This document shows, one piece after another, positions 41,474 through 41,599 of a DNA stretch of 64,000 nucleotides. Source of the DNA: Escherichia coli (GTDB lineage Bacteria > Pseudomonadota > Gammaproteobacteria > Enterobacterales > Enterobacteriaceae). Position numbers and translations under genes: made by a program. Location of the stretch: NCBI RefSeq assembly GCF_044324785.1, contig NZ_CP172127.1; one strand, 5' to 3'. Position 1 is the stretch's first letter. The number at the start of each line of letters is the position of its first letter. The notes under the pieces were generated by a model that made no database searches, had not been told where the DNA came from, and saw nothing but the letters and a program-made list of their open reading frames with translations.

Positions 41474-41599
41474 GCGGGTTATGCGGGTTATCCTGTGCAT
41501 AAGTTAATTAACTGCATGATTAAAAAGGAAATCAATAACCCGCACGTAACCCGCAAAACGGCAGTTATAACCCGCAAATGTGCGATTGTAACCCGCAAA
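41474..41599. repeat. Iteron cluster A: two inverted and four direct copies of TAACCCGCA(A/C)
   Basis: GCGGGTTAT at 41474 and 41484; TAACCCGCA at 41536, 41547, 41567 and 41589; immediately downstream of the replication gene (crr/ori-like). Confidence 0.6.

Follow-up and report, generated by a model that had tools for sequence, protein, structure and literature searches.

A 9-bp motif, TAACCCGCA, is repeated directly downstream of a gene for a 708-residue replication protein in a 64-kb stretch of Escherichia coli DNA (the whole stretch analysed here, hereafter the window), and the arrangement raises the question as to whether these repeats form a replication origin and, if so, what type of element and initiator it serves. 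The original prediction described six copies of the motif, two inverted and four direct, within about 125 bp, and an exact search of both strands agrees with this description. The cluster (cluster 1) spans 125 bp at 41473-41597, a small correction to the initial coordinates of 41474-41599, and it does lie directly 3' of the 708-aa Rep gene (39323-41449, plus strand), with 23 nt rather than the 25 bp first reported separating the TAA stop codon from the first iteron. The left arm (41473-41490) contains two exact copies on the minus strand (41473-41481 and 41482-41490) spaced 9 bp apart, and the right arm (41536-41597) contains four on the plus strand (41536-41544, 41547-41555, 41568-41576 and 41589-41597) with spacings of 11, 21 and 21 bp; the 21-bp spacing corresponds to two helical turns and would align the direct sites along one side of the helix. 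Between the arms is an AT-rich spacer of 45 bp (41491-41535) with a GC content of 29%, compared to 49% for the island in which it lies, and the last iteron ends 62 nt before the next gene, which codes for a single-stranded DNA binding protein (SSB).

There are 11 exact copies of TAACCCGCA in the 64-kb window. In 100 dinucleotide-preserving shuffles of the window the mean was 0.59 ± 0.84 copies with a maximum of three, and 11 copies were reached in none. All 11 are confined to two clusters, with six in cluster 1 and the other five, together with one degenerate copy, in a second cluster at 52048-52201 (cluster 2) that was absent from the original prediction.

The window is E. coli chromosome, and the segment containing rep, cluster 1 and the SSB gene is 99.8% identical to several complete genomes; Megablast searches with this segment found nothing in the phage collection, and among plasmids the matches were only partial. 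Both clusters are within a 19.1-kb island bounded by a 19-nt direct repeat, TTCCCTTCGCCCGCTCCAA, one copy of which (33544-33562) forms the attL core at the 3' end of a tRNA-Gly(CCC) gene (33488-33561, plus strand; ARAGORN and Rfam tRNA), and the other (52689-52707, plus strand) the attR core at the right end of the island. Searching with a 23-mer from the tRNA 3' end gave no attR, and the 19-nt core was recognised by eye. At the left end of the island are a tyrosine-integrase gene (33687-34940, plus strand; PHROG 1, E = 7e-79), an int-alpA RNA (RF02996; 34985-35052, plus strand; 46.9 bits against a gathering score of 35.8) that follows the integrase gene and precedes alpA, and a gene for an AlpA-type excisionase/regulator (36094-36291, plus strand; PHROGs 2790 and 66, excisionase and transcriptional regulator), a signature gene of Gram-negative phage-inducible chromosomal islands (PICIs). 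Upstream of rep is a DUF4222 gene (39024-39326, plus strand), assigned from the annotation of the 99.8%-identical island L001, whose stop codon overlaps the rep start (ATGA); the SSB gene (41660-42082, plus strand; PHROG 44, E = 1e-39, and SSB in the L001 annotation) is the first gene past cluster 1. Two anti-repressor (Ant/Bro) genes and a ProQ/FinO-like gene are PHROG-based calls, and Icd-like, YlcI/YnfO-like and PerC-like genes are named solely through the annotation of L001, which is 98.8% identical to the window over 36709-51029. All of the named genes are oriented rightward save the two YlcI/YnfO-like ones. The integrase, AlpA, replication module, rightward orientation, 19.1-kb size (10-20 kb being usual), dedicated att sites, phiP27-type cos-like site (see below) and absence of a complete virion gene set correspond to the published gene content, order, size and direction of Gram-negative PICIs (PMC6092414; PMC10111431), and from sequence alone we assign the host element to this group.

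The island has several other features of some interest. Between the two iteron clusters (43682-51029, plus strand) are three large open reading frames of 843, 686 and 925 aa that match phage head, internal-virion and ejection families (PHROGs 992, 1145 and 684; E values down to 1e-294); the PHROG 992 match carries a transglycosylase-like segment, PHROG 684 is described as 'virion structural protein', and genes in the related islands L007 and L013 are annotated as 'phage DNA ejection protein' or 'injection protein'. Ejection proteins are unusual cargo for a satellite, and hint at a podovirus-like or P22-like helper. Two tandem 33-bp units, 88% identical to each other, are located at 35939-36004 (plus strand), about 90 bp upstream of the alpA start, and may be a regulator-binding site. 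Similar repeats are present just inside attL (GTATAGTAATGCGTATAGGAC, 33678-33699) and attR (GTATAGAAATGTGTATAGAAT, 52610-52632), a placement that fits arm-type integrase binding sites. The mechanically called 396-aa open reading frame at 37581-38771 (plus strand) is probably not a gene; L001 is annotated there with two small minus-strand genes (37910-38107 and 38165-38362, one a YlcI/YnfO family member and the other hypothetical) and the Icd-like gene.

The original prediction described Rep as a P-loop replication protein and likened the arrangement to that of the P4 alpha primase-helicase. The P-loop is present, the translation containing a Walker A motif (SSAGKTT), but a relationship to P4 alpha is not upheld. 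BLASTP comparison of Rep with P4 alpha gives nothing significant (best E value 0.12), the sole Pfam match is to DUF927 (residues 169-436), and Pfam and NCBIfam searches reveal neither TIGR01613 or another D5-type helicase, nor a P4-family primase domain, nor any recognisable primase domain, so that priming is unexplained. NCBIfam returns only a weak, sub-threshold match to the SCCmec Cch helicase. A phmmer search of PDB sequences matches residues 214-603 to the SaPIbov1 replication initiator with helicase activity (8tch_A; E = 2e-14), the closest solved relative, and more weakly to the SCCmec Cch helicase (5dgk). Because Rep matches 8tch and Cch and shows neither significant P4 alpha similarity nor a recognisable primase domain, we class it by sequence as a SaPI-Rep/Cch-like initiator-helicase and not as an alpha-like primase-helicase; the 8tch and 5dgk matches and the Walker A motif are those of a self-loading hexameric helicase-initiator homologous to the SaPI Reps, with helicase activity predicted.

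The C-terminal domain of Rep was modelled using a 60-sequence alignment from a search of protein-cluster representatives, and the model is a winged helix with greatest similarity to the C-terminal domain of SaPIbov1 Rep, with many other winged-helix proteins also similar. A model built from a seven-sequence alignment (pLDDT 42.5) was discarded. Profile-search matches of this domain to uracil phosphoribosyltransferases among PDB sequences (E values of 0.2-0.75) are attributed to chance. Close copies of the DUF927 rep gene are present in at least 322 of 5,426 complete genomes, and DUF4222 genes precede several unrelated Rep families in islands of this type.

This replication module is found with a variety of integrases and insertion sites, the latter including yicC-dinD (L001), rcnR-thiM (L002), the inside of a prophage terL gene (L003), tRNA-Pro (L004) and roxA-phoQ (L006). 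We compared the window with ten other islands (L001-L007, L009, L012 and L013; 11 E. coli islands in total), of which L009 is EcCICFT073. Six different iterons are represented, TAACCCGC, GGGACARG (L004), GAGGCRAC (L005), TGAACCAA (L007 and L013), CGGGATAY (L012) and GGTAGAYA (EcCICFT073); each island has 9-13 copies of its own 8-mer, and no more than three of the 8-mer of any other island. The L004-type origin is of the GGGACAAG type, as in NZ_CP087578. Although the iterons differ, the islands with DUF927 Reps share a common geometry, with two or three copies 9 bp apart, an AT-rich spacer, and three or four opposite copies mostly 21 bp apart. Cluster 1 begins 24-33 nt after the rep stop codon in the ten DUF927-Rep islands compared and 15 nt after it in EcCICFT073. 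Where copies were counted individually, in seven islands (the window, L002-L005, L007 and L013), each cluster has six sites.

Region-by-region comparison of the Reps of L001-L007 with the window protein gives identities over residues 601-708 of 86-100% for the TAACCCGCA group and 35-51% for the other islands, with residues 201-600 still 94% identical in L004 despite its different iteron. Residues 1-200 of Rep, DUF4222, SSB, the integrase and AlpA do not track the iteron type; L002 and L003, for example, have the same iteron as the window with DUF4222 proteins just 43-46% identical (43% in L002), and L005 has a different iteron with a DUF4222 protein that is 68% identical. As residues 601-708 of Rep are the only segment to follow the iteron type, the comparison maps iteron specificity to the last ~110 residues of the protein. 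The assignment of the iterons to the adjacent replication protein, a further element of the original prediction, is thus supported by their covariation with the Rep C-terminus and by its modelled winged-helix fold.

Published PICI and SaPI origins, among them those of SaPIbov1, SaPI1 and EcCICFT073, lie directly 3' of rep and contain two opposed sets of iterons, with at least two on each side, flanking an AT-rich region (PMC6092414; PMC9371898). In SaPIs the iterons, directly downstream of rep and divided equally between the two sides of this central region, are read by the C-terminal winged helix of a self-loading hexameric Rep (PMC9371898). [quoted passage not shown] Cluster 1 is likewise directly 3' of rep, has opposed iteron sets with at least two copies on each side and an AT-rich middle, and has an iteron that appears specific to its cognate Rep through the C-terminal winged-helix domain, judging from covariation and the modelled fold. 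Its six sites agree with the 6-12 reported for such origins, Rep shares sequence homology with SaPIbov1 Rep in its core and a similar modelled fold in its C-terminal domain, and the gene order of the island is that of a Gram-negative PICI. There are also differences: the iterons are 9 bp long and those reported for SaPIs are 5-6 bp; Rep is of the DUF927 family, unlike the EcCICFT073 Pri-Rep, which has a P4-family primase C-terminal domain (TIGR01613, 110 bits); and there is a second cognate cluster 10.6 kb away beside cos. Because the validated EcCICFT073 uses a P4-type primase-domain initiator, its functional data can be transferred by architecture only.

We conclude, from sequence and by analogy with these systems, and with a probability of about 85%, that cluster 1 (41473-41597) serves a Gram-negative PICI integrated at tRNA-Gly as its replication origin; it most likely belongs to the already described PICI/SaPI kind of origin and not to a P4-family system. 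Rep would be produced following induction and excision of the island, and its C-terminal winged-helix domain would read the 9-bp iterons, with the opposed sets of two and four sites holding Rep on both sides of the 45-bp spacer. By analogy with the SaPI origin (PMC9371898) the spacer would then melt and serve as the site at which the Rep helicase self-loads as a hexamer, and the single strands would be coated by the island SSB, encoded 62 nt further on. Each cluster has as many sites as a Rep hexamer has subunits, suggesting that it may accommodate one hexamer.

The second cluster has the six-site design of cluster 1 with the same iteron in inverted orientation, and aligns to cluster 1 in reverse complement. 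Three exact copies of TAACCCGCA 21 bp apart on the minus strand (52048-52098) are followed by an AT-rich spacer (52099-52175; 28% GC), which is longer than that of cluster 1, and by a tightly packed plus-strand arm (52176-52201) containing a degenerate copy, TAACCCGG, and then two exact copies 9 bp apart. Directly after the cluster is a TATATATATA run (52210-52219) that is conserved whatever the iteron, and which is a candidate unwinding or -10-like element. Cluster 2 is about 80 bp from the phiP27-type cos-like site and about 490 bp from attR. It is conserved in L001-L003, and because its iterons change along with those of cluster 1 in every island examined, we interpret it, on the basis of sequence, as a second cognate locus for predicted Rep binding and not a chance echo of the first. 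No description of a second iteron cluster in PICIs, or of iterons beside cos, was found in the searchable literature, which is incomplete.

The placement of the two clusters relative to each other varies considerably. They are 2.3 kb apart in L004, 7.2-7.6 kb apart in L007 and L013, and adjacent in L005 and L012; in L005, L006 and L012 both are side by side in one intergenic region. In the window and L001-L004, cluster 2 is followed by TATATATATA and then by a conserved non-coding stretch that is unaffected by the change of iteron, and in L005, L006, L007 and L013 it immediately precedes a gene and is accompanied by a TATA element of the -10-like type. In EcCICFT073 (CFT073, NC_004431.1 coordinates 1377930-1388654) the locus at 38997-39284 contains at least nine copies of GGTAGAYA in both orientations across 230 bp, with one 9-bp-spaced pair 15 nt after the rep stop codon and another just before the next gene. 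This layout resembles the adjacent clusters of L005 and L006, though the initiator family differs. The island L003 (NZ_CM176575.1, 5111-20440), which has the Rep, iterons and distal cluster of the window and is located inside the terL gene of a lambdoid prophage, has its own capsid, portal, protease, HNH, TerS and TerL genes, and looks like a helper-embedded, capsid-forming PICI as described in PMC10111431.

Candidate roles for cluster 2 include a crr-like cis element, a site for a second and opposite helicase loading, a Rep-controlled promoter, and a link between replication and packaging. A tentative possibility is that the origin of DUF927-Rep PICIs is bipartite, with two asymmetric six-site pads in inverted orientation, one for each Rep hexamer, which may be either side by side (L005, L006 and L012) or split by post-origin genes (the window, L001-L004, L007 and L013). 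In such an origin the distal pad, which abuts cos in the window lineage, could act by crr-like looping for firing, by loading a second helicase in the opposite direction, or by coupling replication to packaging. As the two clusters are equivalent in sequence terms, either may fire, or both may be needed.

The cos-like region is a non-coding segment (52236-52318, plus strand) with 84.5% identity to the annotated phiP27 cos and with matches to Burkholderia phage genome termini; the alignment predicts a cohesive-end 10-mer, CGCCCGCCTC, at 52279-52288. It is present at the right ends of the window island and L001-L004 regardless of their integrase and iteron, and is likely to be the packaging site of the island. 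No lambda-type cosN (GGGCGGCGACCT) was found in the island, and matches with up to two mismatches occur at chance level in the window, three such near-matches, each with two mismatches, falling inside the island. Rfam reveals no RNA family in the conserved non-coding right flank, and an open reading frame at 52227-52532 is rejected as coding, its frame being disrupted by a 1-nt indel that distinguishes the window from L002. Also within the right end, about 70 bp (52450-52520) amid otherwise non-coding DNA are 84.5% identical to part of the P1/P7 rlfB/rapB replication gene, and are probably a recombination remnant.

The presence of two clusters invites other interpretations of cluster 1. It could be a crr-like accessory site acting in cis, with initiation either occurring at cluster 2 or involving Rep-mediated looping between the two, and P4 provides a precedent in that the cluster directly 3' of alpha is crr and not ori: in the P4 record (NC_001609) crr is annotated 46 nt downstream of the alpha stop codon and ori about 2.1 kb upstream of the alpha start, and both are built of the type 1 repeat in both orientations. 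The island similarly has two clusters of one iteron that both co-vary with Rep in the islands examined, and it is cluster 2 that has the longer AT-rich spacer and the extra TATATATATA run. However, SaPIs and EcCICFT073 have their functional origin immediately downstream of rep (PMC6092414; PMC9371898), and Rep is not a homologue of P4 alpha. Furthermore, since the clusters are adjacent in L005, L006 and L012, and the EcCICFT073 origin has iterons in both orientations, the published 'ori' may already include both clusters. An accessory role for cluster 1 is rather unlikely. We regard as less probable still that the repeats are mainly transcriptional operators through which Rep or another island protein controls the downstream SSB, ProQ, PerC and late operon. 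Iteron-binding initiators often autoregulate, as in iteron plasmids, and where cluster 2 lies upstream of a gene, a TATA-rich -10-like element, a Shine-Dalgarno sequence and an ATG come after the 9-bp-spaced arm, the downstream unit being perC in L007 and L013 (element TATATAAT) and the hypothetical-SSB operon in L005 and L006. In the window, though, cluster 2 precedes no gene inside the island, there is no TATA element beyond the 9-bp arm of cluster 1, and a consensus scan finds no sigma-70-like plus-strand promoter at either cluster; promoter and terminator consensus scans of the plus strand gave nothing convincing at either cluster, so the idea of a Rep-controlled promoter at cluster 2 derives from the TATA-rich element of the other islands. 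The opposed sets around an AT-rich spacer and the six sites are also those of an origin design (PMC9371898), and operator and origin roles are not mutually exclusive.

It is very improbable that the iterons are read by a different island protein such as DUF4222, AlpA or PerC. DUF4222 is a candidate as the conserved partner ahead of several unrelated Rep families, but neither its identity nor those of AlpA, the integrase and SSB follow the iteron type (as in L002 and L003 compared to L005), and it is only the Rep C-terminal domain, modelled as a DNA-binding winged helix, that does so. Finally, apart from the shortness of the motif there is nothing to suggest that the repeats are a functionless product of chance or slippage, and the chances of this are negligible: there are 11 exact copies with 0.59 expected, and a geometry that is kept across unrelated iterons, different integrases and different insertion sites refutes it within the sample examined. 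The reading of cluster 1 as a PICI origin is the one that we favour.

Additional clusters of iterons are familiar from plasmids. P1 incA, the R6K alpha, beta and gamma sites, and F incB and incC include iteron clusters off the origin at which initiator binding modulates firing through handcuffing or looping, and the window island is similar in having an extra cluster of the same iteron away from its proposed origin. Iteron plasmids rely on small winged-helix Rep initiators, which recruit DnaB, the helicase of the host, and are not helicases themselves, whereas the window Rep is a predicted helicase-type initiator, and the island is of a class that replicates after phage induction and is not copy-controlled. 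The resemblance to P4 noted in the original prediction is good for layout and not for family, as the two-cluster arrangement is shared and the proteins are unrelated. In both elements a single short iteron, present in both orientations, forms two separated clusters, one of which immediately follows the replication gene, and the specificity domain that we place by sequence at the C-terminus of the window Rep has a counterpart in P4 alpha, a multifunctional initiator-helicase in which this domain is reportedly also C-terminal. Replication of P4 through ori and crr depends on the second cluster in cis. Unlike P4, the island has a Rep without detectable alpha similarity, TIGR01613/D5-type helicase or primase domain, and a cos-like site of the phiP27 type and not the P2 type; none of the 16 island open reading frames scanned against PHROGs matches the sid, psu or delta families, and no P4 cI-type RNA family (C4 or isrK) is found at the Rfam gathering score. 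As the element is a PICI and not a P4-like satellite, the proper reference is the SaPI/PICI origin (PMC6092414; PMC9371898).

These findings add one more origin of the PICI/SaPI type, and their value is chiefly one of annotation, in marking the probable origin and naming its initiator: the 'DUF927 domain-containing protein' of many E. coli genomes is predicted to be a SaPI-Rep-like initiator-helicase. The natural swaps of the Rep C-terminus, paired with swaps of the iteron, map the specificity determinant across five iteron classes that share one helicase core, and this map may guide the construction of orthogonal PICI replicons. Only the second cluster beside cos takes the findings further than routine annotation. 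A second Rep-binding locus that co-varies with the first, and that in one lineage lies beside cos, would alter the model of PICI replication, perhaps providing a link to packaging, and would bring the PICIs nearer to the ori/crr arrangement of P4, which has long been known and is poorly understood.
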